A DNA stretch of 64,000 bases from Nitrosopumilaceae archaeon (GTDB lineage Archaea; Thermoproteota; Nitrososphaeria; Nitrososphaerales; Nitrosopumilaceae). The stretch spans positions 32,001 to 96,000 of the forward strand of contig CBDBMG010000001.1 in the NCBI GenBank assembly GCA_965207375.1, read 5' to 3'. This document shows, in pieces, positions 8,739 through 62,994 of the stretch (position 1 is its first letter; every line of letters starts with the position of its first letter). A model generated the notes under the pieces. The model ran no database searches, had not been told where the DNA came from, and worked only from the letters and a program-made list of their open reading frames with translations. The position numbers were made by a program, and so were the translations under genes.

Positions 8739-9769
8739 TAGTTTTGTTTTAGTTAATCAAAACTAAAACTAAAAATAATTTTAGTAAAGCAGTTATATTT
8801 TAGTTAACTAAAACTAAAATTAATTGTGAGTTAGTACTAAAACTAATACTAAAGCTAAAATTAATTGTGAGTCAGTACTAAAACTAAAACTAAGTTAGAA
8901 TGTAAATTTTTACTAAAACTAAAACTAAAAGCATAACTAAAACTAAGGGTAATAGTACGTCTTCAAATGGCATATTTGGTGCAATATAACGCTGTTTAAA
9001 CCTGTTTTAAGCTAGGGATGCGCCTAATATGCTCAAAAATTTACCTATTATTCCTTCCAGAACTTCTCAAAATCTTTCCCTATTATTCTTTAAAATACCA
9101 CCTATTATTCCCAAATTATTCCCAAATTATTCTGCTCTGACAGTAAGAAAATAATAACTACAGCTAACTAACTATTGATTACACAGCTAGCTATAGAATT
9201 AAAGACCTTGCATAGAAAGTACCTTATAACATTGAGAAAGTCCACAAAGTGATTGCCGAGTTGGAGACGAAATATTTTCAATATGCGCTATAATCAATTG
9301 CGTGGGCGGACGATCGTTTAATAAATCTTATGCTCACTGAGGACCTATTATTCTAGAATAATTCTCGTATGAAATGGTACCTATTATTCCTCAAATTATT
9401 CCGGCATATTAGGCGCAAACCTGTTTTAAGCCTATTTTTAATCAATACTAAAACTAAAAATAATTTTAGTAAGACCTTTTTATTTTAGTTAGCTAACTAA
9501 AACTAAAACTAAAACTAAAATTAATCAGAAATATTACTAAAACTAAAACTAAAAGTATTTAGAAATATAACTAAAACTAAAACTACAACTAAAAATACTT
9601 CAGAAATCTAAACAACTAAAAATACTTCAGAAATCTAACTAAAACTAAAACTAAAACTAAAAATAATTCAGTAATCTTACTAAAACTAAAACTAAAACTA
9701 AAATTATTGAGCTAAGTTACTAAAACTAAAACTAAAACTAAATTACAAGCCCTTACTAAAACAACACTA
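8739..9769. mobile_element. hAT-like MITE with (AAACTA)n subterminal arrays
   Basis: TAGTTTTGTTTTAG..CTAAAACAACACTA; 8-bp TSD attacttg. Confidence 0.8.
9013..9423. mobile_element. hAT-like MITE nested in 8739-9769
   Basis: TAGGGATGCGCCTAATATGC..GCATATTAGGCGCAAACCTG; 8-bp TSD ttttaagc. Confidence 0.85.
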
Positions 9770-15704: not shown

Positions 15705-16032
15705 CAACAGCTCCACCAGTTATTGTTGAGGGACAATGCATACCACAACCAGAAGTTATTCCTAATAATGATGTAACAGTGATGATAGGATCTCCTGCAT
15801 ACATTGCTGATGGATATGATCTCACTATTACTTGTAATATTATTAATGGAATACCTCCAATAAATATTAGTTGGTATCGTAATGGAGTAGTTGATTCATC
15901 CAGAGGAAGCACATCAACTATCACAATATCAAGTGTGGACATTAATAAAGATAATGGTGTAGTCTATAGCTACCTGTAGAGCTGAAAATGATAACGGATA
16001 TGATGAGCAGCTCACTAGTGTTAATGTGTTTG
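15705..16032 (+). pseudogene. Multi-Ig gene exon, Ig domain 5, frameshifted by a 4-nt GCTA insertion (15969-15972)
   Basis: Paralogous to exon 5881-6195; removing gcta restores VYTCRAENDNGYDEQLTSVNVF G|gtaag; length 328 = 324+4; alternative in-frame acceptor at 15710. Confidence 0.85.
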
Positions 16033-17622: not shown

Positions 17623-17965
17623 GTAAGTTGCTCTATAGTTAGCTACGTACATATGTAGATAATAATGAGGGGCCCCGACTCTTGTACGAGATTTCAAATC
17701 TTGATTTTGAGCAAGATTTCAAGATTTCTGCAAAGATGTCTGCAAGATTTAAATTGTATTTACTATTTTTCTATGTATTTACTTATAATTTTGAATTAGC
17801 TATGACAGAAAGTAAGCTCATGCACTTGTGTAGCTATATCTAGAAACATTCGGTTTTAGCTATAAGATTCAGATTTCAAGATTTCTAAAAGCCTATATGA
17901 GATTTCAGTGGAGTTGGTGTATGTATGTATGTATGTATATGTATAGCTATGTATGTACCCCATAG

Positions 17966-21560: not shown

Positions 21561-24272
21561 GTAAGTTCTGCTTTCATTGTATGCATGTAGCTCGTAAATT
21601 TCAGTATGTATACGTTTTACTTATTTTTGATTGATTTTCAAATGTCTTTTCACCTCTCATCCCATCAAAATACATGCATGAGAAACCAAGTAGCTATCAA
21701 GTTTGGACTAACTCATAACTGATGATACCTTTCTTGGCATTTTATGTACTGGTCTTAACTGTTAAATAAGTATCAGGCCAGCAGCTCTTTCTGCATGGTG
21801 ATATAGCTAGCAAAAACTGTACATGTGGTTGAGGTGGGTGAGGTGATATACAAAAATGAGTTGGCAAAATTAATTTTGGTGATCTAGTGCAACTAGTTTC
21901 AGGTGACTATTTGCACATTTTAAGAGCTGCCTTTTCTAACAGCTATCAGAATCAGACACAAATCATTAATGACACCTCTCATAATGAAGACTATTGGACA
22001 CCTTATCACTAAGGTAAACATTTTAGGGCATAATCCCCTAATCAAACAAAAATTTGCAAAATTTAATTGTGACTTGCTATCATTTCAGTTGAAAGTCAGA
22101 TATGTAACCTCAGTAGTCACACCAGATAGCTAGCTAGCTTTAAACAGTCAGAGTTAGAAATTTTTCTGCATCGGTAATCCAAAATTTTCATAACTGTACA
22201 AAATTTCTTCAAGTAGGAGATTTTGCATTTGAACGAGGTAGCTAGCTAGCTATATACTTTACAAGGGCACAATGTTTAATAGTTATTTCACAAAGGGAGT
22301 TTCTTGCCAAGTTTGCAGAAACTTTGTCCCTATATAGCTAGCTACAATATAAAGACTTGGCCATATTTGTTAAAAATCTAACCTCATAATCTGATTTAAA
22401 ATGTATGATAAATTTGTCTGACCAAATTAGATTTTGATTGGCCAAATGCTTTTCAGAAAATGGCCAATAGCTAACTACGTATATGCAAATCCAAAGCTAT
22501 CCTTGCTGTCCATTTTGTTTGACTGATAATCAATAATTGAATACTGGTAATGACCTATAGTAAGGAATGAAGCCAGCTAGCAGTCATTAGAGGGAAGTCT
22601 TTATGGTTTTTAAGGGAAACCTTACAAGCTCATTAGAGTTACATTAGCCAATGATTTGTGGCTGCAATGATTTCATATGGCACTAAATATTATGTGGCTT
22701 CATAAAGGTCATAGCTCCTTGTAAGGTACCACAAGTAGCAATCCCCATAAACATTGCAAAATATGCTTTATTCCTTATATAGTAAAACATATTATTCATA
22801 GCAGAGATAGGTAGCTTACCTCTCTCATAAATCTGTTGTACAAATTACACCACCATAGTCTTGTGACTGCATTCTGAGTTTATGATTTGCACAAGTCTTA
22901 GGTTTATGTAAGTGAGCTGTAGATCACCATTTATATAAAGATTCATAGCTACAATAGGGTGAGTCACATGACGTCTTAGGTTGTTGTGTATGTTACCATG
23001 CTACAAGATTGCTACAAGATTGCTACGTACAATTTAGTATGGGTAGAGGTAGCTATATAGCTAGTAGTAATACTGATATTTCATATACACGTAGCGCTAC
23101 ACATTTGTTCACAAAATTTTGTTCAAATTGACCCAAAATTGAGGAGTTATAAGTAATTTTGCATAAAATTCCGCTTGCACATGCCTCCCACAAAAATGTT
23201 GTTGCAATTTATCTGAATTTTTCAAGGCTTAAAGCTTCTATTGAAAGTAGACTGTTTTGTTAATCACAATGATCTGTGCTTTTCATCTACTCATATAGCT
23301 CAGAAAATAAGCATTATATCGATATCCACCAGTTATACCTCACTTCACAAAAATTTTATCCAGTCATTTCCAAGGTATGCACCTCAAAAATTGCCAATAA
23401 ATAACACACTGGTAGTTGCTGGCTCATGCCTCTATGGCTTCTAAATCATCGACACATGTATATTGATTATCATGATATAATATTGACATTCTTGACACGA
23501 CCACAGTAAAATTATTTTGATATCATAATTCCTGTAATACATTAACTAGCAAAGCAAGGAGAATATGATGTAGCTGTGCATCAGGTTGTGGCAAAGTTTT
23601 TAGATATAGACCATAGCCTTCACTAAGTCCTGGACTGCATGGACTCAAAGATATCTTAAATTGGAACAACGTTGTATTTTGAACAAGATGGCCAAATTTT
23701 GTATCAAAATCTCATGAGCTCACAGCCCATAAACTTGTAAATTATTGATGTACACTTACAGGGAGTTAGCAGCAGGTATGACAAGGTTTATATTTTGATG
23801 AATTGGTAAATTTATCATTAACTAGTGAGTACAGACAATAGAACATAATATATATTGAATGTTTTGTTAATCTAAATTTTAGCCTTAAAAGGTCATGTTA
23901 TATTTTGTGTTAATCTTTGCTGCAAGACCCTTTTGCACTGTATAGTGTTTGGCAAGTCGCCTAAATCATTATCAGAGATGAATATTCTATGTTAAAATCT
24001 AAAATTGACACACCCACTCTGCATAGTGTGCTGCTATGGTTGTATACCACTAGTACTGCTCATAATGTCCTAGCTATGTATGTAGTGTTAACTGTTTTAA
24101 TAGTTCCAATGAATTATGGGTACATAATTGCTTGAAGGGACTGTACAACGGAATTTGTTCAGGAATTCATTTTAGTCTGTTAAAATAACCATTATCATGC
24201 TTGCTTGCTATAGCTACATATTGTTATAGCATCACAATACATTCTATATTATTGTTGTGTTGTATTCTGTAG

Positions 24273-25703
24273 ATCAAACTAATGAAGGAAATGAATTCTT
24301 TGTGGGATTTTTTAGAAATCGATTTGGCAGAACTGATGAGCCTGAGGAGATACCTCCAGTTCTTTGGATCACAACTAAAGAGTCTATGCCAGTCAACTTT
24401 ACAGTGTTCACTTTTTTTGGACTTCTTACTAGTGGTGTAGCAACTCCTGGAGAAATAACATATGTTGACATACCTCTTGGATTTGTTGTGTTTGATTCAT
24501 CTGTAGATAGTGAAACTGATACACGGTTTAAAGGAATTCATATTAAAGCAGAAGATGACAGGAGAATTGTTGTGTTTGGTCAAAATGAAGAAGTAGCATC
24601 CAATGATGCTTATCTAGCCTTACCAATTATTTCACTGCCAGCAGGAAGGTCTTATGAGTACATTGCAGCATCAATATTTGGAGATTCAGGTACTGTTGCA
24701 CGAGCTTCTGATAGTGTGGCTCTAATTATTGGAACTGAGAATGATACTGAGATAATCCTTGAACCGCGTGTTCTCATCAGGCATCCCTTTGCTCCAGCAG
24801 CATTTGGTGGACGGTTTATTCCTGGACTTCCTGTTCAGTTTCGTACTGTAACTATTCAGAGGTTTCAGTCATTTTATCTTCAGATTCGTGGTGGAGATAT
24901 ATCTGGTACTCGTATAATAGCAAATAAGCCAATATCTGTTTTCTCTGGACATGAGTGTGCTAATGTTCCATTAGCTAGTGAACCTTGTGACATACTGATT
25001 GAACAACTTCAACCAATAGATACATGGGGAACTGAAGCAGTTACAGTTCCACTGAGTAAAAGGAGTGGTGATGTACTAAAAGTGTTTGCTTCACAAGACT
25101 CTACTACAGTTAATGTTACATATACAAACATCAGTAGTGGCATGGTTACCAGTGATAGTTTCACACTTAATCGTAATGGATTTAGAGAGTTGGGGGGTAC
25201 TTCAACAGTGGCCACAGGGGCTATTGCTGACTTTGCCTTGATACAATCTAATAATCCAATTGCAGTATTTCAATTTAGCAGAAGCTTTACAACTGATAAT
25301 AATACAATATCTGATCCATTTATGTTGTCAGTACCATCTTGTGAACAATATCGTAACAGTTATGCTGTAGTTCCAGCTCCATTTGATCCTTCAATTGAAG
25401 GCACTGCAGCTTCAGGACGAGTTGCATATGTTAATTATACTAACATTGCAGTACCAGCTGATTATTTTAATGCTAGTTTAATAACAATTAATGATAATCC
25501 AATTAATGTCTCAGAGTTTAGGCCAATCAGGAGAGCAGATAACAGCATATGGGGCTATGGTGCACAGTTAGTACTTGATGAAGGAGCTCAAGTGATAAGC
25601 CATTCAGATCCAAATGCAGCTCTATCAGTAACCATATATGGATTCAGTAACCAGATGTCATGGGGTTGTACTGGAGGAACAGGTCTTGCTCCTGTTGCTC
25701 TTT
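24273..25703 (+). CDS. IgGFc-binding-domain (FCGBP N-terminal-like) exon, copy 1, intact
   Basis: 477 open codons with DQTNEGNEFFVGF, GIHIKA...SNDAYLALP, DISGTRIIANKPISVFSGHECANVP, CDILIEQLQPIDTWG and SDPFM motifs; tgtag acceptor, gtaagt donor. Confidence 0.92.
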
Positions 25704-26076
25704 GTAAGTTATGAGCATCTGTTATTGTATGTAAATGTCAGTGTATCTGCTATATATTTACATGATCTCAGAACCTTTTTGTTCTCAAGGATACAAGGTT
25801 GTGGTCATTTAATGTTTACAGATGATGGCAGATGGCATTTCTTTTTGAGAATAGAACAATAGCCATTGAATTATTGTACTCAACATTGACCACAGCACAG
25901 ATGAGCTGTTACAGCAGCTGTTGGCTCTTTGCTATTATTCATTACCTATTGTCATAGTTACAGTGTGTGTATATTTGTACTTGTAAATTACCACTAATAA
26001 CACTTTCTCACTTATGATGTACAGCTAGTAGCTACCATGGTTACCAAATGATATTGAGTCATGTCATTATCTGTAG

Positions 26077-26133: not shown

Positions 26134-29100
26134 GTGCAAGGCCAATCAGAAACAGTGTAGCAACCAAAAGCTTTGATATCAGTAAGGTTGACATTTTATT
26201 AAAAATATACAATATTTTCACAGCTATGGTTGGCTTTGTCACTTGGCCACCTTTTTATACTATCATCGAGACCAAGTGACAAACTCAATCATAGTCGTGA
26301 ATATGCCTTGTAGCTAAACTATTGTATATCATCATAAAATGTTTTAACTTCTTGGCCTTTGGTCACTTATAACCATTGCTGCTTCTGATTGGTCTCACAC
26401 TTTTTTTACAGCCAGACTGTTTTTATATATTACATATAATATATCTGACTGTCTGTAAAAACCAGCCATGTTTGCATCAAAACTGAAATCCATTTTTATT
26501 ACACAAGATCATAGCTACACTCAAGAACAACTATCAATACACACAGTATTTCTACTGGCCAATGTGAACAAGTGTTTTCTGGAGGGCATTTTGCCAACCT
26601 TGTGATGCCACGATAAAGAGAATGGTGCCTATCATAGAGCCAGTGTACCAATTAGGTGGCCATGACCTGAAACTGTTCCCATTGCCTTGCCCTTGTGGTG
26701 TGGTGTAGGCTCCTTGTGGCTACGTTTCCTACTTGAAACAGTTCCTTACAGTTTTTTGATCCACCTCCCACCCCTCTCTCCTATCCCACTCACTCACTCC
26801 TCGATGATGGCTAGATCTCAAAAGCCCTGAAATCCAGCCATCAGGTTAACTCTATGAATAATTGCTGCTAATATAAGATGGCTGGCTATAGGCAATTGCT
26901 TGTTTTAATTAATTGAAATGTTATTTCTCAAAATATTACCTAGGCTGGTTTTCACTCAGATGGTCACATATATTTGAGTAATTACAGTATTGTCATCATA
27001 GTTACTGTTATGCACTGTACATATAAACCACTAGGAATCTACTGGTTTGTATATATACATAGCTATGCAGCAGCTCACCACTATAATAATTATGCCAGTT
27101 TTGTGCTAGTATATAGTCTGTCTTAGCAGCATGAATTTTTATAGCTACAATGAGCCAAAGATACATTGATTTTAGTGAGTGGTTGCATTATCGCTAAAAT
27201 TTACTGATGCTAATTATAAACAATTTGATTGATAATCTCTAATAAAGCAGTCACCAATGATCGGTGATTGCACTATTACAGAGTATCAATGTGCAATCAG
27301 TATTCACTAAATGTGCAATCACTAACTTTAGTGTATATATTGTTAACATTACTCGGCTTATGGTACATAAGTAGTTTTACAGACCATTATTATTATACAG
27401 TATATAGCTACAGCTCAAAGACAACTTGATGCATGCAGGCAGAGCATACATGGTTAGCTCGAGTGTCACCCACACCCACATGTGCATGTAAGGGACATGT
27501 GCATGCCAAAAGTAATGCAGATTCTCTCCACCTAACTCAGTTCTTCATTCTGGCTTGTTTATTCTTACACTAGTTCACGCATATACATAGATTTAATGCT
27601 GTAACATACCAACCAAATTTATACTTGTTTGTCACCATATCAATTGGTTGTATTGCCATGCCTTGCTTGGAAAGAACAAGGATAGCTGGTTTTCTTAAGT
27701 AAATTAGGCACCATTCATTTCATCCCACCAATTGAAAACTCATTTCAAAATATTATATTCTTTGTTAGTATCCTGCGCATTTATAAAGTATTCGTTACGC
27801 GCATGGAGGGACCAAGCCAGATACTTACCGATGCCTTCAGCTCACCACCTACGTGTGGGTATCAAGTTGCCTTTGAGTTGTACCACTCCTACACTACATA
27901 AAATAGTAGGAGCTAGACTGCATACAGTATACAGTAGCTACATAGCTATATTACATAATAATGGAATATTTATTATACAGTATATTGAATCATGTTCAGT
28001 ATGAACTCATACCTTACCCAAATTGAATAATTGAAATGGCTCCCATCACTACATGCAATACTGTAGTTAGTTACTACTGTTGAAATATTGATTAATGGAA
28101 AATAGCCACATTGTTTTGCTTTTGTCATTGTACTGGTACCAATTGGCATAATACCCTACTATTGTAGTACAAATTTTCCTAACCATTCTCAGTAGTTACA
28201 TTTCATATATTATGTAATCAACTAGCTGGTATGTGATGTTTTTAGTTGTTACTTGACATGACACATTACAATGGTATGCTCGTTAGGATTATTTACATAC
28301 AAAACATCAATTAAAGAAAATAAATATTATATCACTCACCCACATAAGGTAGATCGTAATGCAATGTGCAAAATAATTTTTGAAACATGGCCTGAGACAC
28401 TGTCAGGACATAAAGTTTGGACGGACATAAGTGCAGTGGAGTTGTCTGAACATTGTGTTAAATCAACAGTCTTCCAGTAGTCTTTGCTCAAACGTTTATT
28501 CCGTACAAATGTAAAAATGCCCTGACAAATAGTGTTTTTCTCCAGAAAATGTCCACTGTCAGGCTGTTATTCCACACTCTGTAATGTAACTTATAGCATT
28601 TTGTATATGTACCTAAACCATTTACTGTATTTAGAGAAAAATTTGCTGTTGGAAATTTTCACGTGGAAACAGTTCGTGGTAAAATATTTTCATCTTCTGA
28701 GATAGTTGACGAAAATTTTTAACAACGAATGTTTTCCTAGTTGAAATTTTGTCACTTTGCTTGCTATATATATTCAGCCTTGGCTCTTGCACTCAGTCTT
28801 GTCTAGCCATACGATGCATTTCACACGAACATGTACGTACACATAGATTAGGGATTATAAATGCTTGCAGACTTGAAGGTATTTGCATAAGAAGCTCGAT
28901 CTCAGTTTCCTTCCCAGCTAGATATGGAGAGTGACAACATTTACATGCCCAAATATGGATTTTATCAACACCTTCCAATTTAACCTTCCAATGATGCCAT
29001 TGTAGTTCTACTTAATGAACAAGTGTCAGAATCTGAAGTATTTTGCCCACATGTGGGCAAAAAGTGAACAAGTTTGCCTAGCTTATTTAAAAATGGGGAA

Positions 29101-29641: not shown

Positions 29642-31274
29642 TGCTAAACAAAAACAGCCTGGCTGTAAAAAAAGTGTGAGGCCAATCAGAAGCCACTATG
29701 GCTATAAGCGACCAAAATCTCTGATATCAAGTAAGGCCAAGAAGTTGAACATTTTATTAAGAATCCTTTTACTTGAATGACATACAATAGTTTACAGGGC
29801 ATTTTCACAACTATGATTGGCTTTGTCACTTGGCCACCTTATAAAAGATGATAGTACAAAAAGGTGGCCAAGTGACAAAGCCAATCATAGTTGTGAAAAT
29901 GCCCTGTAAACTATTGTATGTCATTCAAGTAAAAGGATTCTTAATAAAATGTTCAATTTCTTGGCCTTACTTGATATCAGAGATTTTGGTCGCTTATAGC
30001 CATTGTGGCTTCTGATTGGCCTCGCACTTTTTTTACAGCCAGGCTGTTTTTGTTTAGCATATCACTGCTTTTTGTAAATAGATTACAATTATAAACAAGT
30101 CCTGACAAGAAACCTTATATGAAGTATGCAGAGTAATAAAAATTTAAAGGGGAGAGGAGCTGGAAGTTAATACTTTAGGTGTTTCCCCGGCTTGTATTTC
30201 CCCCAAGTAGCTAATGAACATATAAAGTACGTATTACTATAATTGTTAGCTATGTATATAGGTGGAGAACAGTGAAGAACCTCAATGAAGGCACATCATT
30301 GCCATCATGTCCTGTACTGTTGATTGATCTACAGGAGAAGATATATTATAATGCTATAAATAAATTTTGTGCATGCTAACAGGACAGTGGTCTCCTATTT
30401 ATAATGTATGGCCACTGTTCACCTCGTGTTGTTTGGTATAATTATCTTGCATGGCACATAAGCATGAATGATCATTAAAGGCTAATTTTGACAAACTGAA
30501 GTGTCACAATTTCTTTAAACTTATCCTGAAGATTCATATATCAATATAGTTTGTGTATCTGAAATTTTATTCAAATGATTTAGAGGGGGTCCTAGTTATG
30601 GAAACTATCAACATGCAGTGTAAAAGTATCTCTCAAATACAGTTAGGTATTTGCTTTATGCTGAAAGTTGTTTGTCTGATAGAGCATACATAGGAGAAGT
30701 GTTGATACAAATTTGGTTGAAATCCATGCAGAAATGAGTGAGTTATTAGACAAATAAGTGTGAGTGTTTCAAATAGAAATTCCGGAATTCACGCGCAAGC
30801 GCACAAAAAGTGTGCGATGAAAATGAAAGAAGAAAGAAAGAAAAAAAACGACGGGCGCCTAAAATATTTTTGATTACAGGAAGGAGTTTATAAGGCGTGT
30901 ACGGAAAACTCGTGTCATGGATATCAAACGACTTCAGGTCAACGATTCTTCATACATTGAAGGTACTATTTGTTTAGTAAACGAGTAAGTAGGTGCCAAG
31001 GGGATGGTTTTTCGAGCGTGGGCGCACGAACGGGTGCCATAAAACTCGCAATGGCTGGTACTTAGGATTGGTGGCGCCGATTTCCTCCATTGTCGGGTTA
31101 CTAATTCTATATGGTTAGAACGTTCTGAGTCCTGAATAACTAGGCGATAGCTGTCGTGGCGGCTTAGTTACAGAGTTTTCAAATTTCAGAGCGGTGCTAC
31201 GTGTAAATAACTCACTCATTCGTCGCGTACGGCTGCTTCTTCTTGGCCTCGCGACTCACTATCGTGAGTCTTGA
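29642..31274 (-). mobile_element. Helitron-like element, family B, with a 200-bp-arm terminal palindrome
   Basis: 5' TCAAGACTCACGATAGTGAGTC; arms 29641-29840 and 29861-30060 with a 20-nt loop; inserted in gagataa|tttataaaag with no TSD. Confidence 0.75.
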
Positions 31275-38192: not shown

Positions 38193-38498
38193 GGGGGCAT
38201 CTCCAAACTGAATTTAGTACGCTTAACGTCATAATGACGTTTAGAGGGGGGTTTCAGACCGTGACGTTATTAATTTAAATACTTTATATGTATGTATATT
38301 GTATGTATGTATGTATATATTTTGTATGTATACTTTATATATTGTATGTATGTATGCCTTACTGGGTAAAATATTAAATAACATGATTTTGTGCCAATAC
38401 ATTGTTTTACTAGCATGACATTAAGGAGGGGGAGGGGGATCAAATAGTTAGTGTCACAATGACGTTAAGTGTACTAAATTCAGTTTGGAGATGCCCCC
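38193..38498. mobile_element. PIF/Harbinger-like MITE
   Basis: GGGGGCATCTCCAAACTGAATTTAGTAC TIR; TAA TSD. Confidence 0.85.
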
Positions 38499-38880: not shown

Positions 38881-40682
38881 TCAAGATTCTTTCGATTTCT
38901 TCTGTCTTTGGGCATCCTAGTACTAGGTAAGTTATTGCAGCTACGCGTATGAGTCACGAGGCCAAGAAGAAGCAGGCCATACGCGACGAACAAGTGAGTT
39001 ATTTACACATAGCACTGCTGTGAAATTTGCGAGGGGTCCGACACAATTTCAAATCTTGTTGATGGTTTGCCTTGATTTCAAATCACAAATCATGAAAACC
39101 TTCCGTAATTATTGTAAATTCTTGTCAATATTAGCTCAATAGATTTACATTATCAAAATATATTTCAAAATACAAAGTAAATACTTTGAAATGTAAAATA
39201 TATACAAATCAAATCACCCCCAAATCAATTAAGGATTTCAAATCTTGTCAATCAAATTCAGACCCCTCGGAAATTTGTTAACGTTCTAAATAAGCCGCCA
39301 TTAAAGTTATCGTTTAGGTATTAAGGGCTCAGTATGTTCTAGCTATATAGAATCAGTAACCCGACAATGGAGGAACTGAATCGGCGCCACTACGAGTTTT
39401 ATGGCGCCCATTCGTGCGCCCACGCTTGAAAAACCATCCTTTTGGCGTCCATTCACCCGTTTACTAGACAAATAGTACCTTTAGTGTGTGAAGAATTGTT
39501 GACGTGAAGTTCATCAACATTGGTCACGTCTAACTTCTACAACAGCCATACAAAGTCCTTCCTGTCATCAAAAAATTTTTTACACGGCTTGTGTGACCCG
39601 GCATGAATCCCAGAATTTATATTTGAAACACTCATTTAGTACATACACTTGTTTGTCTAATAACTCACTCATTTCTGCAGGATTTCGACCAAATTTGTAT
39701 CAACACTTCTCCTATATGTAGCTATGCTCTACCAGACAATTAACTTTCAGCATAAAGCAAATTTAATACCTCAATGTATTTGAGAGATAATTTTACACTG
39801 CATGTTGGTAGGTTCCAAAACTCGGACCCCATCTAAATCATTTGAATGAAATTTCAGATACACGAACTATATTGAAATATCAGTCTTCAGGATAAGTTTA
39901 AAGAATTATGGCACTTCTGTTTGTCAAAATTAGGCTTTAACCATTTCATTCATGTTTATGTGTCATGATAATTATACCAAACAATAATAGGTGAACAATG
40001 GCCACACATTATAAATAGGAGACCACTGTCACTGTTAGTGTATACAAAATTTTGTTTAAGACATTATAATATTGTCTTCTCCTGTAGATTGATCAACAGT
40101 AGAGGATGGCAATTATGATGTCGCACGTGCTACACATGACTGAGCCTTCATTGAAGTTGTCAACTGTTTTCCAGCTACATATAGCTAACAATTGCATTAA
40201 TAACACATACTTTATATGTTCATTAGCTACTTGGGGGAAATACAAGGGAAACATCCAAAGTATTAACTTGCTCCTCCCCGTTAAAATTTAATTACTCTGC
40301 ATGCATATTTTATATAAGGTTTCTTGTCAAGACTTGTTTATAATATATAATCTGTTTTGAATACTTACAAAAAGCAGTGATATGTACAAAAACAGCCTGG
40401 CTGTAAAAGAGTGTGAGGCCAATCAGAAGCCACAATGGTTATAAGCGACCAAAAACTCTGATATCAAGTAGCTAAGGCCAAGAATTTGCATTAAGAATCC
40501 TTTTACTTGAATGACGTACAATAATTTACAGGGCATTTTCACAACTATGATTGGCTTTGTCACTTGGCCACCTTTTTGTACCATCATCTTTTATATAGCT
40601 GTACGTAGCTATAAAGTGGCCATGCAAGTGACAAAGCCAATCGTAGTTGTGAAATTGTCCTGTAAACTATTGTATGTCATTA
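38881..40682 (+). mobile_element. Family B element, degraded, right hairpin arm truncated
   Basis: Reverse-complement match to 29642-31274 along its length; further hairpin fragments at ~3980-4360, ~18805-18980 and ~26134-26425. Confidence 0.75.
39030..39269. mobile_element. CGAGGGGTC-family MITE, 8-bp TSD
   Basis: CGAGGGGTC..GACCCCTCG; TSD gaaatttg; absent from the other family B copy. Confidence 0.8.
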
Positions 40683-46186: not shown

Positions 46187-46333
46187 ATGAAATTATTTGT
46201 ACATTTTGTGCTTTTGATGTTACTGTCATCATAGATATTATAGACTCCGTACCCGTACGGAGTCTATAGCTAATATCTATGCTGTCATGTAATGACCCAT
46301 GCTGCAGCGAGAGAACCTTCATTCCAGGATGCG
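46187..46333 (+). pseudogene. IgGFc-binding/Calx-beta gene copy 2, exon 1, disrupted by a 59-nt insertion
   Basis: Near-identical to 21473-21560 apart from a 52-bp palindromic element plus 7-bp TSD. Confidence 0.85.
46230..46281. mobile_element. 52-bp palindromic P-like mini-MITE
   Basis: CATAGATAT..ATATCTATG; 7-bp TSD ctgtcat; empty site in the paralogous exon at ~21510. Confidence 0.8.
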
Positions 46334-47150
46334 GTACGTTGTTCTGCATTCATATGATAGTTAGATAGTGTACGCTATAAAGCCAGGCAAACTCGATTAC
46401 TTGTTTCTCAATTATCGCCCGCATGACTCCAAACACTACCGCCTTAAATTTTAGTATGTTTATAAATTCATTATTCAAAATGTCTTCACCCGGCTCTCAC
46501 TCCCATTGTAAAAATTAATGTTCATGAGAAAGCAAGTATCAAGTTTGGACTAACTCATAACTGATGATACCTTTCTTGGCATTTTATGCACTGGTCTTCA
46601 ACTGTTAAATAAGTTTCAGTCCAACCAGCTCATTCTGCATGGTAATAATTATAACAAAATAGCCTATGCACACGTGGTTGTGAAGGTATACAAAAATGGG
46701 TTGACAAAATTAATTTTATTAATCTAGTGCTACGAAGTGAAAACTATCAGGTGACTATTTGCAATAATTTTTACAGAACCAACCCCTTATTCATGAAACT
46801 ATTAAGAGCTGCCTTTTCTAATAGCCATGATCAGAATGACACAAAAATCATTACACCTCTCACAATGAAGACCACTGAATAACTTATCACCAAGAGTTAA
46901 TAATAAGATCACCAAGGTAAACAGTTTAGGACATAAGCCCTGTCTTTAGACGTCTCTGCATGTGCATTTTTATCAAAACCGCAAATTTTAATTGTGACTT
47001 GCTATCAAGATGGGAATCATTTTAACTGATAAGTAAGATAAGTAACTAGTCACCAGATAGCTTTCAATAGCATTTCATTTTTGTGCATCAGTAATCCAAA
47101 ATTTTCATAAGATGTACAAAATTTCAAAAACCTTAGATTTTGCAGGTATA

Positions 47151-51298: not shown

Positions 51299-52720
51299 AT
51301 CAAACTAATGAAGGGAATGAATTTTTCGTTGGATTTTTCAGAAATTGATTCAGTAGAACTGACGAACCTGAGGTGATACCTCCAGTTCTCTGGATCACAA
51401 CTAAAGAGTCTATGCCAGTCAACTTTACAGTGTCCACTATTTTTGGACTTATTACTAGTGGTGTAGCAACTCCTGGAGAAATAACATATATTGATATACC
51501 TCTTGGATTTGTTGTGTTTGATTTATCTGCAGATAGTGAAGCTGATACACGGTTTAAAGGAATTTATATTGAAGCAGAAGATGACAGAAGGATTGCTGTG
51601 TTTGGTCAACATGAAGAAGCAGCATCCAATGATGCTTATCTAGCATTACCAATTATTTCACTGCCAACAGGAAGGTCTTATGAGTACATTGCAGCATCAA
51701 TATTTGGAGATACAGGTACTGTTTCACAAGCTAAAGATAGTGTGGCTCTAATTATTGGAACTGAGAATGATACTGAGATAATCCTTGAACCATCTGTTAT
51801 CATCAGGCATCCCTTTGCAACACAAAGTGGTAGACAGTTTATTCCTGGAGTTCCTGTTCAGTTTCGTACTGTAACTATTCAGAGATTTCAGACATTTTAT
51901 CTTCAGGTTCGTGGTGGAGATATATCTGGTACTCGTATAATAGCAAATAAGCCAATATCTGTTTTCTCTGGACATGAGTGTGCTAATGTTCCATTAGCTA
52001 GTGAACCTTGTGACACACTGATTGAACAACTTCAGCCAATAGATACATGGGGAGCTGAAGTAGTTACAGTTCCACTGAGAACAAGGAGTGGTGATGTACT
52101 AAAAGTGTTTGCTTCACAAGACTCTACTACAGTTAATGTTACATATACAGACATCAGTAGTGGCATGGTTACCAGTGATAGTTTCACACTTAATCGTAAT
52201 GGATTTAGAGAGTTGGGGGGTACTTCAATATTTGCCACAGGGGCTATTGCTGACTTTGCCTTGATACAGTCTAATAATCCAATTGCAGTGTTTCAATTTA
52301 GCAGAAGCTTTTCAGCTGATAATAATATAATATCTGATCCATTTATGTTGTCAGTACCATCTTGTGAACAATATCGTAACAGTTATGCTGTAGCTCCAGC
52401 TCCATTTGATCCTTCAGTTGAAGCACTGTTTCAGGACGAGCTGCATATGTTAACTATACTAACATAGCAGTACCAGCTGAGTACGTATTTTAATGCTAGT
52501 TTAACAGTTAATAATAATCCAATTAATGCATCAGAGTTTAGGCCAATCAGGAGAGCAGATAACAGCATATGGGGCTATGGGGCATAGCTAGAACTTGATG
52601 GAGTTACAATGATAAGCCATTCAGATCCAAATGCAGCTCTATCGGTAACATTGTATGGATTCAGTAACCAGATGTCATGGGGTTATACTGGAGGAACAGG
52701 TCTTGCTCCTGTTGCTCTTT
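51299..52720 (+). pseudogene. IgGFc-binding exon, copy 2, inactivated
   Basis: Highly similar to 24273-25703; CGA->TGA at 51346, net -4 nt near 52423-52431, +CGTA at 52484-52487, CAG->TAG at 52585. Confidence 0.92.
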
Positions 52721-53613: not shown

Positions 53614-54386
53614 GTAAGTTGCACATCAATATGATTTATCATTAGCATGTTAATTGTAGTGTAAATGATAAAACAATTAACACCATTGTGTAACAAATAA
53701 TGTAATATGATATCACTGAATGCATTGTGTGTATGTACATCATATATGTATATGTGACTGTCACTGCAAAATCCAGCCATGTTCGCACTAAAACTGAAAC
53801 AATTTTATTACACAAGCTTATAGCTACACACACTTAAGAACTATCCATGCACAGTGTCTCTGCTGGCCAATGTGAACTGGTATGCTTTTCTGGAGGAAAT
53901 TTTGCCAACCTTATGATGTCACGATAAAGAGAATGGTGCTTTTCATAGAGGACACCAATTGGGTGGCCATCACTTGGAACTGTTCCCATTGCCTTGTGTG
54001 GTGTGGTGTGGTGTGGTGTGGAGACCTTTCCTACTCTAAACAGTTGATCCACCTCCCACCCACCCACCCCTCAATGATGGCTGGATTTCAAAAGCCCTGA
54101 AATCCAGCCATCAGCTGTTCACAAGGTTAACTCCATGAATAATTGCTGCTAATATAAGACAGCCAGCTATAGAGAGCTCATTGTTTTAGTATTTTGAAAT
54201 GGTACTTATTTCTCGAAATATTACCAAGTGCAAACTAGGTTGTTTTTCACTCATATATTTGAGTAATTGCAGTATTGCCATCGTAGTTACTGTTATGTAC
54301 TGTACATACAAATATTGGGTTCGTATATATGTAGCAGCTCACCACTTATATTGTTAATGTGCCAGTTTTGTGCTAGTATATATATA

Positions 54387-54972
54387 CCGTATAGCGGGTT
54401 TTTAATGTGGACACAAAAAGTTGCAAAATAAAATTTAAACGACATTTAATCTTGTGAGCTAGCCTATTCACAATATTAAATTCCTCGAATGAATAAAGCG
54501 AAGAATAAAGCTTTCCTTTAAATCTTCGTCATATGCTCATATTATACTGAATTGCGAAAATATCTGTGAATAGACATCCTTTTTCACCGTATACTTCCTG
54601 TGCGATCGACGCCCATGTGCCACACCCACTTCAAAACACAAGGGGTTTGGCTTGCTACCATAGTTAAAGGCTTAAAATATCTTCAAGTTATGCATGGGAA
54701 TCGTAATTTTTGGCCTTTAGTCTGTATATGATTGCTGTATGGACATGCCCATTTTATTGATCGACTAGATCACGTCGTGCATAAAAGTATGGCTACGCCA
54801 GACTAGATGTATACAGAATTGCAGTAAAGAACTACAGCTACTCCAGTATACTGATTACTGAACGATTTGCTAGTTTTGTACATGCATGCAAGTAAAATAC
54901 AACGTAATTAAAACCTTGCAAATTAAGCCAATCGCAAGATTAAAATCCTCGCATGAAAAACCCGCTATACGG
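54387..54972. mobile_element. Tc2/pogo-like MITE
   Basis: CCGTATAGCGGGTTTTT..AAAAACCCGCTATACGG; TA TSD; empty site at ~27110; related fragment at 20965-21154. Confidence 0.85.
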
Positions 54973-55675
54973 TAGTCTGTCTTAGCAGTATGGATAGTTA
55001 TTATAACAATACACTAATTTAGCGATTTTAGCAAGTAGCTGTACTAAATTTACTATATAACGCTAATATAAACATTTTGATCAATACTCTCTAATAAAGC
55101 AGTCACTAATGATTGGTGACTGCACTATTAGAGAGTATTGATGTGCAATTGCTAAATTTAGTATTTGCTAAATGTGCAATCATAAATATCACTAACTTTA
55201 GTGTATCATTAATATTACTCGGCTTAAGGTACGTAAGTATACAGAGTGCATGTAAAAATAAAATAATTGTATGCATTTGCTAAGACATCTTTAGCAGTCT
55301 TGGTGGGTAAGTATGTTAAAGAAATTACAACAGCAAGGTTATTAATAAGCTGGTTGCTTAGTAACGATTACCTTAACTACTGATGATCTATAATCTATAA
55401 AGGCATAATGATGATCAGACAGGATGATGTTGAAGATTTCCAGTAGTACAAAGTTATATAACTATAAAATATTTATTAATTAATATGTTAACATACATAC
55501 ATACACACACACTACAATCAATATCAATTGTGCATGAAACAATATGATGTCATTGTTCCTAATGAAGTAGAGTCTAAAAATGGTGCTCAGATTTAGAGTT
55601 ATCAATGTCACATTGACTCAGCATCATCACAATACCTTATCCAAAGGCTGATGTGCGACTCATGTCATCGCTGCA

Positions 55676-57870: not shown

Positions 57871-58249
57871 GTATCATTTACTGCCACAAATCAGTTTGTC
57901 CCTATATAGCTAGCTAGCTAGCTATACTCTTTGTAAGCTCAAGAATAGCCTTTAACAAAGAAATAATATTTGTCAGTTCTCGAAATACAAAGCAGCTAAA
58001 TCCTTAACAGACTATACAAACTATGGTCAACAGAGAAACCTATAGTGAGATCCAAAGTTAGGATGGCTAGCACAAATGAATTACGAAGAGTATACTTGAT
58101 TACTAAACTGCACTCTAATCTTCTATTGTAAACAAAAAGTTAAGCATTAATTAGCTATATATTCCATACTTACAGCATGGTGTATGGAATTAGCTACCTA
58201 TATACTGTATGGAATTACCATGCTCATAGCTACTTATGTACTATTAAAA

Positions 58250-58750: not shown

Positions 58751-58907
58751 CGAGTATCCCCAGAAATAAAAGAAATAAAAGTCTTTATATCAAACCCTTG
58801 TTTTTTCCTTGTATGTATGTATGTATGTATGTATGTATGTATGTATGTCTTGGGGATGCCCCTATAGGCTTTTTTAGCCTTTTGCTTCCCCCTGTTTATT
58901 TTGATGA

Positions 58908-58969: not shown

Positions 58970-61380
58970 AAAGAAAATAATGTTGTTGAGGTCTAAGATG
59001 TACATAACAGGCAGGATATGAAGTTTTACGTATATGACGAGATTTGTAACTAGTTGCTAACATAATATAGTCATTTAAAATATATTTGGTTGGATACGTT
59101 TAATAAGCTGTATATGGTGTGGTTTCCATAAAATTGAGTGGTAGCTACATGAAGTGAGACCGAATTAATGAGATATAAAGCTGTTTTTTTGCAATTAACA
59201 GGAATGAGTGTTGTAGCAACTTATAAGCCTTAGAAGTAACACCTTGGTAGTGTGGTTCCCAGAAGAGGTTGAAGAAAGTATAACACCCAAGTCACTGCGC
59301 ATGGTTATCAACTTTTTTAATTACAGAAGTACCAATGGTGTTACCGTGTAAGTTGATGATACTATAGAATTGAAGCTTAACAGTACAGTTTTGGAGGAGT
59401 TAAACATGAGGTTCCAGTCTAGCTATAGCTACGTATGCTCCATTCTCTTAAAGATTCAATGTCACGTTGGAGCTGAAAGGAGTCAGATGGTTGGATGATG
59501 GTTTTGAAGCATTTGATATCATCAGCAAAGAGTAAAGTCACTGATAAAGCAACATAGTTAGGAATGTTGTTGACATATATGTATGAGGAACATTAATGGG
59601 TCCAGGATACTTCCCTGTGGGACTCTTGATAAGACAGGCAATAGACTAGAGTATATTTATTGTGTATTTTACACATTGTTGCCGATTTGATAAATATAGG
59701 ATTTGAACCATAACCATGCAAAGGTTTCCATGCAAAGATAACTAACAGTTCATTGTGAGAGACACTCTCAAATGCCTTTCGGATATCTAAATATATTACA
59801 TCAGTTTGGCACCTATAGTGCTTATAGCTTTATTTAGCAGAATAGGTAGTTGACCTATTTCTTAGAAATCCAAATTGGCAGGAAGAGATGAACTTGAAGA
59901 TGTGAAAGTATATTTTGCCATGAATTAATTGCTCAAGTACTTTGGATGCATTACACAGTAGAGATGAAGGGCGGTAGTTATTTGTCAAGGTTTTGTCACC
60001 AGATTTGTACACATGTACAGGGACCTATATATACATATATAACTAACAAGTGTACCTGCGCTATCGTGCAGGGTGTAGGCTGTGTAGCTAAATGCAATGC
60101 ATGACCCTACCTATGGTGTCTTTTGCCTATAGCCAGCTACTTATGGTCTGCCCTATTGTGCAGGTGCTGCTAAATGCATGCTGTGCATGGTGGTAACATA
60201 TGCTACCTAGTCTCCTATACCTACCTGTGGTCTCCATGCAATGATTTACCTAGTGTCCTGATCTCCTATGCTTATGCCTGGTCTCCTGGGCCTGCCTATG
60301 GTCTCCTATGCCTGCCTATGGTCTCCTATGCTTACCTATGTGGTTGCCTACCTGTGATCCCCTATGTCTATACCTTGCCTCCTAGGCCTGCCTGCCTACC
60401 TATGATCTCCTACACCTATGTACCTAGTCTCCTAAGCCTACTTATAGTCTCCTATGCCTACCTAGTCTCCTAAGCCTACCTATAACTCCTATGTGGCTCC
60501 TAAGCCTCCATAAGTCTTCTCTTATGCACCACATAGCAATGTTAACACCTTGAGGTTTCTTTGTTTAATTAACACCTTGTATAATACGTAGGCTGTACCA
60601 GCTTGTAAAAAGTTTATAAACTAATGCAGTGACTAAATCCCTGACCTGGTAACAGCTTGTAAAAAAAGTTTATAAACGAAAAGAACATGCAGTCACTAAA
60701 TCCCCAACCACCGAACTAAGGTGTCGAAGTCCAGTGGTTCACCAACTGTGCACTAGCTGGATTGCTGCGATTCATAACCGTCTGGAGTCTCCTCTTATGC
60801 ACCACATAACAATGTAGGCTGTACCAGCTTGTAAAAAAAGTTTATAAACTGGTAGTAACTAAATCCCCGACCACCGACCTAAGGTGTCAAAGTCCAATGC
60901 TTTACCAACTGTGCACTGGATTGCTGTGGTCAATGGCTGTCTGGATCGACACGGGTGTCTATCGGGCACTCGTGTCGAAAAACTAAAGCTCTTAGAAATT
61001 TTTTAAAATAAACTTGCATGGTCATGCCAGAAGACATACTATCACATTGAGCAAGTCTGATGTTGATCCATGCAGCCACGGCCGAGAAACTGACCAACAA
61101 AAAGTGTGGACGGACAGACAGATGGACAGACAGATGGCCTTTCAGGTTTATATAGTAGATTATATTGAATGAATACACAAATCAGTGGGTAGTGTATGCT
61201 TATTAAGACTTAGTGAAAATAAGAAGTGTAAGGGTTTGAACAAAGTTTCTGCACAGTATTTTAAAACCCTGGGCCCAACAGCTACCATCAATTCCAGTTG
61301 CTTTAGTAGGGTTCAATGCAGAGAGAGCATTAAATACTTAAGCTTCAGAAATGGAAATTGAAACTAAATGGTATCTGATA
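58970..61380 (-). mobile_element. Degenerate CR1/L2-type LINE ORF2 (reverse transcriptase), split by the Helitron
   Basis: YKSGDK...NYRP.SLL...KVLE, QFGF, DVIYLDIRKAF, VPQGSILDP, LLFADD motifs; KATGIDG upstream at ~61290; multiple frameshifts. Confidence 0.85.
60043..61159 (-). mobile_element. Canonical non-autonomous Helitron inserted into a LINE
   Basis: A|TCTACTATATAA start, (GTCT)-like repeat, CCTAT minisatellite, short 3' hairpin CCTGCACGATAGCGCAGG then TTAG|T; related 3' end at ~19409. Confidence 0.8.
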
Positions 61381-62760: not shown

Positions 62761-62994
62761 ATTTTCCTAAATTGTAATCTGTCTTCATATTTTGTAGTAT
62801 AACTTAGCTAGCTACATAGCTAGCTATAGTTAAATAGTATTAGTTGCTAGTCTGCCTTCAATAGCTACACTGTTAAAAATGGGTAAAATGTCTGAAAACA
62901 ACTCCTTTTGGAGTTACCACAGCTCCTCATTTTTAGCAGTGTACAGCTATTGGCCTAGACATATAGTATATTATGGGTACACTCCGCATATGTA

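Follow-up and report, generated by a model that had tools for sequence, protein, structure and literature searches.

The transposons Tc1 and Tc3 of Caenorhabditis are excised through a 2-nucleotide (nt) staggered cut; the ends of Tc1 read CA...TG, so that its overhangs do not pair and mixed footprints are left. To our knowledge, no uniform palindromic scar has been reported for Tc1 or Tc3. For Tc1/mariner elements, passages of a published account state that the TA target is duplicated and that overhang bases are left as an excision footprint, the first nick lying inside the element so that a few element bases remain as 3' overhangs on each flank (PMC7827188). Part of a second source gives footprints of 0–4 bp for Passer, an element of the pogo superfamily (PMC9976928). 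Here, we describe a stretch of animal DNA of 64,000 nt (the window) in which the dinucleotide TA has repeatedly been lengthened by four bases to TAGCTA or TACGTA, hereafter called scars, and we compare these scars with the products of TA-targeting cut-and-paste transposons.

The window comprises positions C2:32001-96000 of a four-contig assembly (G000). Contig C1 is a 2.16-Mb bacterial genome, 99.95% complete as judged from marker genes. Contigs C2–C4 are animal DNA with a G+C content of 37% and CpG at about half of expectation, and their exons encode Ig, IgGFc_binding, Calx-beta, laminin-G and EGF domains. The host was thus sampled by ∼2.14 Mb, the total of C2–C4. Among atlas look-alikes, Mollusca was the commonest phylum, no more than a lead to the host.

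The excess of the two hexamers was evident at every scale. TAGCTA occurred 180 times in the window, compared with 28.10 ± 4.81 (largest 40) in 100 dinucleotide-preserving shuffles, and TACGTA occurred 31 times, compared with 11.30 ± 3.87 (largest 26); neither observed count was reached by any shuffle. Ranked by excess, TAGCTA was the top hexamer both in the window and in the whole 4.3 Mb assembly, where 5533 copies were found against ∼1112 expected under a second-order model. An earlier reading of the window, made from its letters alone (the sequence-only reading), had proposed such a comparison with a Markov background. On C2–C4 alone, both words were in approximately five-fold excess (TAGCTA, 5297 vs 1051, 5.0-fold; TACGTA, 2362 vs 482, 4.9-fold). 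All other TA-NN-TA words on these contigs were enriched by no more than 1.9-fold. Chance is excluded as the source of this excess. The density of TAGCTA was 0.11/kb on the bacterial contig and 2.3–2.7/kb on C2–C4, which places the signal in the animal DNA rather than in the sequencing run at large. Together, the scar hexamers accounted for 7659 of the 208,972 TA sites on C2–C4 (∼3.7%). Genome-wide, TATGTA and TACATA were also enriched, 1.8-fold, and (TGTA)n/(TATG)n arrays were located in the window at 17918-17957, 38287-38356 and 58810-58848; speculatively, these words and arrays could be CpG-decayed TACGTA scars and (TACG)n.

To characterise the underlying mutation, indels between repeat copies were indexed as pairs of 12-nt flanks that lie adjacent somewhere in the assembly and 1–12 bases apart elsewhere. 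Tandem duplications were set aside, each flank context was taken once, and the counts refer to C2–C4. Among the 605 unique non-tandem 4-nt indels, 105 shared exactly TA with the flank, such that the TA was duplicated. These comprised TAGCTA (49), TACGTA (32), TAATTA (6), TATGTA (5), TACATA (5), TATATA (4) and four singletons. The tabulation of the indel spectrum that the sequence-only reading had called for therefore places 81 of the 605 unique 4-nt indels in the TAGCTA/TACGTA class. Duplication of TA was rare at other lengths: 8/236 at 3 nt, 6/211 at 5 nt, 20/542 at 6 nt, 1/288 at 7 nt and 16/566 at 8 nt, and several of the 6- and 8-nt cases were a scar plus TA, or two scars. This length spectrum demonstrates a process that adds TA and two bases. 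The middle dinucleotide was self-complementary in 91 of the 105 events; TAGGTA was seen once and TACCTA never, and this near-absence indicates that the two ends contribute complementary bases. The ten TATGTA and TACATA cases could be TACGTA after CpG deamination. Of the 46 gaps of 4 nt that distinguish repeat copies within the window, 14 belonged to the AGCT rotation class. A second, minor 4-nt class (the TGCA/CATG rotation) was observed in seven of the 46, for instance at 40621, 23639 and 40298, with seven TGCATG events genome-wide.

The direction of the change was read from copy counts at 103 unique sites. Copies with the long form were outnumbered at 40 sites, prevailed at 4 and were tied at 59 (mostly 1 vs 1); these counts and the five-fold hexamer excess point to insertion, not deletion. 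Duplication of TA with two non-templated bases, in which the long form is derived, is thus borne out by both the indel classes and the polarity sites.

The same mutation was apparent in the long duplicate blocks, of 94–99.8% identity, that exist within and between the animal contigs. Their 194,651 aligned columns hold 2035 mismatches and 448 gaps. The spectrum of gap lengths rose locally at 4 nt (42 rows, compared with 29 at 3 nt and 17 at 5 nt), and 17 of the 42 rows belonged to the scar class, seven as TA→TAGCTA and ten as TA→TACGTA (one of the ten ambiguous with a GTAC duplication), at 14–15 distinct sites. The mix was uneven: C4–C4 pairs presented nine TACGTA rows and no TAGCTA row, and C2–C2 pairs four TAGCTA rows and one TACGTA row, which fits episodic or local sources. 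By rough arithmetic from these counts, with TA sites at ∼9.75% of positions (208,972 of ∼2.14 million), a TA site gains a scar at ∼7% of the rate at which a base is substituted. Examples of these blocks are a 57-kb reverse block between C3:198507-255794 and C4:54047-1 (99.7–99.8% identical; haplotigs or overlap) and a 46-kb inverted duplication inside C4, between C4:135242-181332 and C4:929942-862667 (95–98.8% identity).

The scars and (TAGC)n runs of the window that are discussed below are as follows (window coordinates; no strand is assigned).

15967..15972: TAGCTA scar (TA + GC + TA) in an Ig-domain exon, frame-shifting; TA at two paralogous places
52482..52487: TACGTA scar within a degraded copy of an IgGFc_binding gene; TA at four paralogous places
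46267..46272: TAGCTA scar beside one arm of a short palindrome
9490..9495: TAGCTA scar, compared with TA in the repeat copy near 8803
21691..21696: TAGCTA scar, compared with TA in the copy near 46537
26311..26316: TAGCTA scar, compared with TA in the copy near 29906
39719..39724: TAGCTA scar, compared with TA in the inverted copy near 30685
40469..40474: TAGCTA scar, compared with TA in the copy near 29731
59420..59435: scar stack TAGCTA-TAGCTA-CGTA, mixing GC and CG; 59417-59435 reads TCTAGCTATAGCTACGTA
22127..22136: stacked TAGCTAGCTA; eight bases are absent from the paralogue
22239..22252: (TAGC)3 run
57907..57924: (TAGC)4.5 microsatellite
62805..62826: (TAGC)5.5 microsatellite

In each of the copy pairs listed by the sequence-only reading, including the palindrome arm at 46267 and the site at 52482, the difference was precisely one GCTA or CGTA added at a TA; TAGCTA can be read directly at 15967-15972. 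Its description of stacks at 59420, 22127 and 22239, the latter two with (TAGC)n, likewise agrees with the letters, and scars were seen stacked or sitting inside such runs at 22239, 57907 and 62805. Mixed stacks such as TAGCTACGTA numbered six in the window. The palindrome itself, at 46241-46266, reads TAGACTCCGTAC-CC-GTACGGAGTCTA, with a CCGTAC/GTACGG core similar to the termini of the TA-type elements described below. Outside the window, one TA position of a satellite array at C4:499734-509094 was occupied by TAGCTA in 29 units, by unaltered TA in 135 and by TATA in one; this scar was propagated by array amplification.

Scars have also entered coding sequence. At 15967, one reading frame ends in '...DNGVVYSYL*' and a second frame carries on 'SIATCRAENDNGYDEQLTSVNVFG', which shows that the four bases split an Ig motif of the 'VY.C.A.N' type. 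The frameshift claimed for this exon is therefore upheld by the two-frame translation, and the short form was present at two other places of the assembly. In public contigs from two other studies that cover 15967, exactly four letters are absent somewhere in 262 and 329 bases. The second exon hit, in IgGFc at 52482, held in part: TACGTA is present and four paralogues have TA, but the open frame of this copy already stopped at 52467 and the copy is degraded in any case. Similarly, the stack at 59420 had been placed inside reverse transcriptase (RT) codons of a long interspersed nuclear element (LINE). The stack is there; the RT label is weakly supported, as the nearby RVT_1 match (59830-60024, minus strand, E 8.6e-4) lies below the Pfam cut-off. 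A minus-strand open reading frame (ORF) ends at 59419.

Transposons that duplicate TA were identified in the same DNA. With satellites removed, C2–C4 contained 47 TA-flanked elements with terminal inverted repeats (TIRs) and ends of the form C[C/G]GTA...TAC[C/G]G. They included miniature inverted-repeat transposable elements (MITEs) of ∼200 nt (CCGTATAG...), a 795-nt MITE (CGGTACAGCTC...) and larger copies. The window holds one such element, of the kind proposed as the source of TACGTA scars.

54387-54972 (54385..54974 with the flanking TAs): 586-nt pogo-type MITE, 5'-CCGTATAGCGGG...CCCGCTATACGG-3', with TA on both sides

Paralogous empty sites were found for 6 of 50 TA-flanked elements, all reading exactly TA. 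Two elements, one CGGTAC of 890 nt and one CCGTATAG of 217 nt, were each present in one copy of blocks 99.7–99.8% identical, with a clean single TA in the other. Locus L011 is a 3.2-kb copy with perfect 20-nt TIRs and an open frame of 568 amino acids (aa) with a DDE_1 domain (E 1.6e-13); L012 presented DDE_1 and an HTH_Tnp_Tc5 match below threshold (16.6 bits vs a cut-off of 22.2; E 0.0079). By these domain matches, both are pogo-type, and the CCGTATAG family shows the features by which pogo elements are recognised (DDE_1, a Tc5-type helix-turn-helix, TIRs and TA duplication). L015, with CGGTAT ends, encodes DDE_3 and is by that domain Tc1-type. Among 626 scored relatives of the L011 protein, the closest protein cluster, of 13 members, showed 98% identity over 90% of its length. 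The TIR elements, clean-TA empty sites and polymorphisms between near-identical blocks thus show resident pogo-like and Tc1-like elements that duplicate TA and have recently been active; the sequence-only reading had supposed an active TA-targeting cut-and-paste family. The pogo-type copies also carry a second ORF (L011:2568-3167 and L012:1775-2638, both on the minus strand); one has a near-threshold HIRAN domain match, the other a Ulp1-type C48 peptidase domain.

Two further features connect these elements with the scars. A target with A at -3 paired with T at +3 is the typical preference of Sleeping Beauty. The frequency of A at -3/T at +3 was 0.35 when every TA site was counted, rose to 0.53 for the 47 insertions of elements and reached 0.58 for the 59 scars that lie outside arrays; by class, A at -3 reached 0.64 for TAGCTA (z 4.6) and 0.52 for TACGTA (z 2.7), with 59 of 62 being A or T. 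The scars therefore share the target preference of the resident elements. Moreover, the C...G or CG...CG ends of the resident elements predict TACGTA, and the extra bases of this class are indeed the terminal bases of the resident C[C/G]GTA...TAC[C/G]G family. Words that TA precedes in excess of expectation were either the scars themselves or C[C/G]GTA ends.

These observations suggest a mechanism by which transposon excision would generate the scars. An element would integrate at TA and duplicate its target; on excision, both TAs would remain with two element-end bases between them. The two bases may be a single base of each inverted end, or they may stem from a self-complementary 3' overhang of 2 nt (CG or GC) after re-annealing and ligation; the two routes cannot be told apart by their product, and either would explain the strict length and the palindromy. 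With inverted-repeat ends, the two bases would always be self-complementary, giving the palindromes TA-CG-TA and TA-GC-TA. Elements with CG...CG ends and a 2-nt stagger would have pairing overhangs and yield exactly TA-CG-TA, and those with CC...GG ends would leave one base per end. Each scar would create a new TA, allowing scars to stack, and runs of at least two units would then grow by slippage into (TAGC)n. We infer that excision of TA-duplicating elements made the scars, and that the TAGCTA class came from an unseen family with G...C ends. We put at about evens the proposition that TA→TAGCTA and TA→TACGTA are excision scars of IS630-Tc1-mariner/pogo cut-and-paste transposons, with higher confidence for TACGTA than for TAGCTA. 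The process may also be 'highly active' and 'self-amplifying', as the sequence-only reading put it.

Several results weigh against an origin by transposon excision. A TA-duplicating family with G...C or GC...GC ends, as TAGCTA would demand, was not found in the 2.14 Mb, and this donor-less class is the commoner one (49 vs 32 recent events; 5297 vs 2362 hexamers). A low-copy G...C source could easily be missed in ∼2 Mb, but the gap is real. The cut-and-paste source put forward earlier is accordingly supported by the resident elements with C...G ends and falls short for the G...C donor. The allele comparison proposed with it was run among the copies, and no copy pair had an element in one member and a scar in the other at the same TA; the three TA-type element polymorphisms and six empty sites, a small sample, all read clean TA. 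Scars were not denser within 500 bp of elements (TAGCTA 2.06 vs 2.47/kb; TACGTA 1.36 vs 1.10/kb), and a scar abutted an element end in 5 of 94 cases, compared with a 3.7% baseline. The pogo-type ends start with CC, and their 2-nt overhangs could not re-anneal, so that a one-base-per-end remnant must be assumed for TACGTA. Finally, passages on Sleeping Beauty and mariner describe 3-nt-overhang footprints (PMC7827188), and the corresponding 5-nt gain was nearly absent here, a single TACTGTA being found among the six TA-duplicating cases in 211 unique 5-nt indels.

Candidate donors were tried and rejected in turn. The G-starting TA-flanked ends GGGATTG and GTTTACAGGG proved to lie inside longer palindromic elements whose flanks are constant, and the GGCCTGA, GTCTCGC and GGGTCCGC elements were discarded as TA-type, as they end in TAG...CTA with 7–9 bp duplications. 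The Tc1-like ORF in L008 and the two pogo-like ORFs on C3 had no recognisable TIRs. Bacterial IS630-type elements on C1 have ends GT...AC with TA flanks, which fit neither GC nor CG. Contig C1 carries many near-identical copies of these insertion sequences (a 371-aa DDE_3 ORF; ends GTAATTT...GATTAC, TA-flanked; for example L002-L006 and L009), and 20 DDE_3 transposase matches were counted on it. A search for element-filled counterparts of the scar flanks returned 542 matches, essentially all in tandem arrays and not usable. Among mutational routes, templated copying from a nearby TAGCTA would yield TACATA, TATGTA and TAATTA in proportion to their frequency, which was not seen; hairpin (P-nucleotide) models would, by reasoning, add TA rather than GC; and a 2-nt route placing GC between two TAs (33 of 44 GC insertions) collapsed to five distinct contexts, mostly one C4 satellite.

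Given the missing donor, an origin without any element has to be considered. A TA-specific staggered break, made by a transposase, whether free or domesticated, or by some other nuclease, and followed by overhang fill-in with a fixed two-base addition, would account for the lack of a G...C donor and of any element-versus-scar pair, for the strictly uniform scar length and for the lack of enrichment near elements; transposase-like ORFs without recognisable TIRs do exist here (in L008 and as the two pogo-like copies on C3). Independent end additions would nevertheless also give TAGGTA and TACCTA, seen in 1 and 0 of the 105 events, we know of no repair route that adds a fixed and always self-complementary GC or CG, and the uneven GC/CG mix of the duplicate blocks better fits distinct sources than one repair bias. 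We consider such a break unlikely. A neighbouring possibility, to which we give slightly more weight while keeping it tentative, is that TAGCTA derives from no ordinary resident element, but from a source not described before, either a GC-ended TA-duplicating family with clean and frequent excision or a transposase-derived nuclease acting at bare TA. It is improbable, in our view, that other elements inserted between T and A with no duplication and left two bases per end (T-AG|CT-A, T-AC|GT-A). The outcome in sequence would equal TA + GC + TA, and elements ending TAG...CTA are common here, but these carry 7–9 bp duplications, from which excision would leave no clean 4-nt gain, and the verified TA-type elements do duplicate TA. 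The TAG...CTA elements are Foldback elements (TAGTCTCGC..., TAGGGTCCGC..., TAGGCCTGAG...) with 7–9 bp target duplications, located at L008 518-1023, L016 2558-4439, C4:184680 and C4:736212; one of them interrupts a Tc1-like transposase ORF.

Explanations that do without a dedicated enzyme fared worse. Microsatellite slippage alone, in (TAGC)n and (TACG)n, is very improbable: runs are present, and some 4-nt and 8-nt differences do lie inside them, including one at 9185, but the 81 counted events share only TA with their flanks (microhomology of exactly 2), their GC or CG is not found next door, and, tandem cases apart, in none of them did the inserted unit repeat its neighbour. There are mixed stacks such as TAGCTACGTA, and the stack at 59420..59435 was not made by slippage because it mixes GC and CG. 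The earlier statement that simple slippage does not explain the first event is thus sustained; slippage is refuted as sole cause and is likely a second step in the growth of (TAGC)n runs. We assign a similarly small probability to a sequencing or assembly artefact. The insertion inside a conserved Ig exon is suspicious, and the four letters absent from the two other-study contigs over 15967 add to this suspicion; against it, TAGCTA is depleted on the bacterial contig of the same assembly, the satellite scar in 29 units vs 135 with TA reflects inheritance by copying, and the target preference equals that of real element insertions. Among the matches listed, contigs from public runs, which may come from the source sample, agreed fully over stretches with three TAGCTA. 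Least probable of all, to the point of being barely tenable, is an ancestral long form from which TA arose by 4-nt microhomology deletion between two TAs. TA..TA microhomology would favour such deletions, but the long form was the minority at 40 and the majority at 4 of the 44 informative sites, and deletion is unable to explain the five-fold hexamer excess.

Beyond the scars, the assembly has features of its own. It is filed among prokaryote genomes, yet consists of one bacterial and three animal contigs, the window itself being animal DNA; its marker-gene contamination is only 0.06%, a figure so low because animal DNA lacks bacterial markers. A search of genome contigs for related loci found no relative. 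The IgGFc_binding family is represented in the window by very large single exons at 24230-25714 and 51349-52467. A protein search retrieved 416 relatives at E ≤ 0.001, and among the matches listed many were 75–100% identical and located on long contigs, which indicates a huge multigene family in this host or related ones.

The signature is real and unusually dense; its mechanism is only half demonstrated. Our search of the literature, which covered main texts and not supplements, did not find a report of such a genome-wide signature. If the transposon origin is correct, the scars would constitute a recognisable mutational signature that knocks out exons, as in the Ig exon at 15967, and gives birth to tetranucleotide microsatellites, and it could be used for dating and mapping past transposon activity. 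If excision scars reach ∼3.7% of TA sites and supply 17 of the 42 4-nt indel rows between recent duplicates, DNA transposons would shape this genome far more by their leftovers than by their copies. Should TAGCTA instead have a source other than an ordinary resident element, a self-feeding process would be writing its own TA targets, frameshifting exons and seeding (TAGC)n; if that source is the GC-ended family, its 2-bp scar would have become the prevailing 4-nt mutation and the first-ranked hexamer of this genome. Gene callers applied to such genomes would meet many 4-nt frameshifts of this single type, and the lack of a G...C source poses a concrete problem that can be put to the test.

Compared with known systems, the scars resemble the products of Sleeping Beauty and mariner, as far as the passages cited above describe them, in that TA is duplicated and both TAs are kept after excision with element-end bases between them. 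They differ in length, since the first nick there lies 3 nt inside the element and gives a 5-nt gain, whereas the gain here is 4 nt (two bases and TA); here they are also more uniform, and so dense that no hexamer of the genome ranks above TAGCTA. The likeness to pogo and Passer lies in the resident CCGTATAG elements, with their DDE_1 domain, Tc5-type DNA-binding domain and TA duplication, and in the short footprints given for Passer in the part of the source cited. In contrast, the resident CC...GG ends would need a one-base-per-end remnant for TACGTA and are unable to give TAGCTA. The non-pairing overhangs and mixed footprints of Tc1 set it apart from the uniform scars seen here. The 2-nt 3' overhang on each flank is nevertheless the feature of Tc1 and Tc3 that comes closest: with the CG...CG ends of the resident CGGTAC and CGGTAT elements, such overhangs would pair and yield TACGTA.

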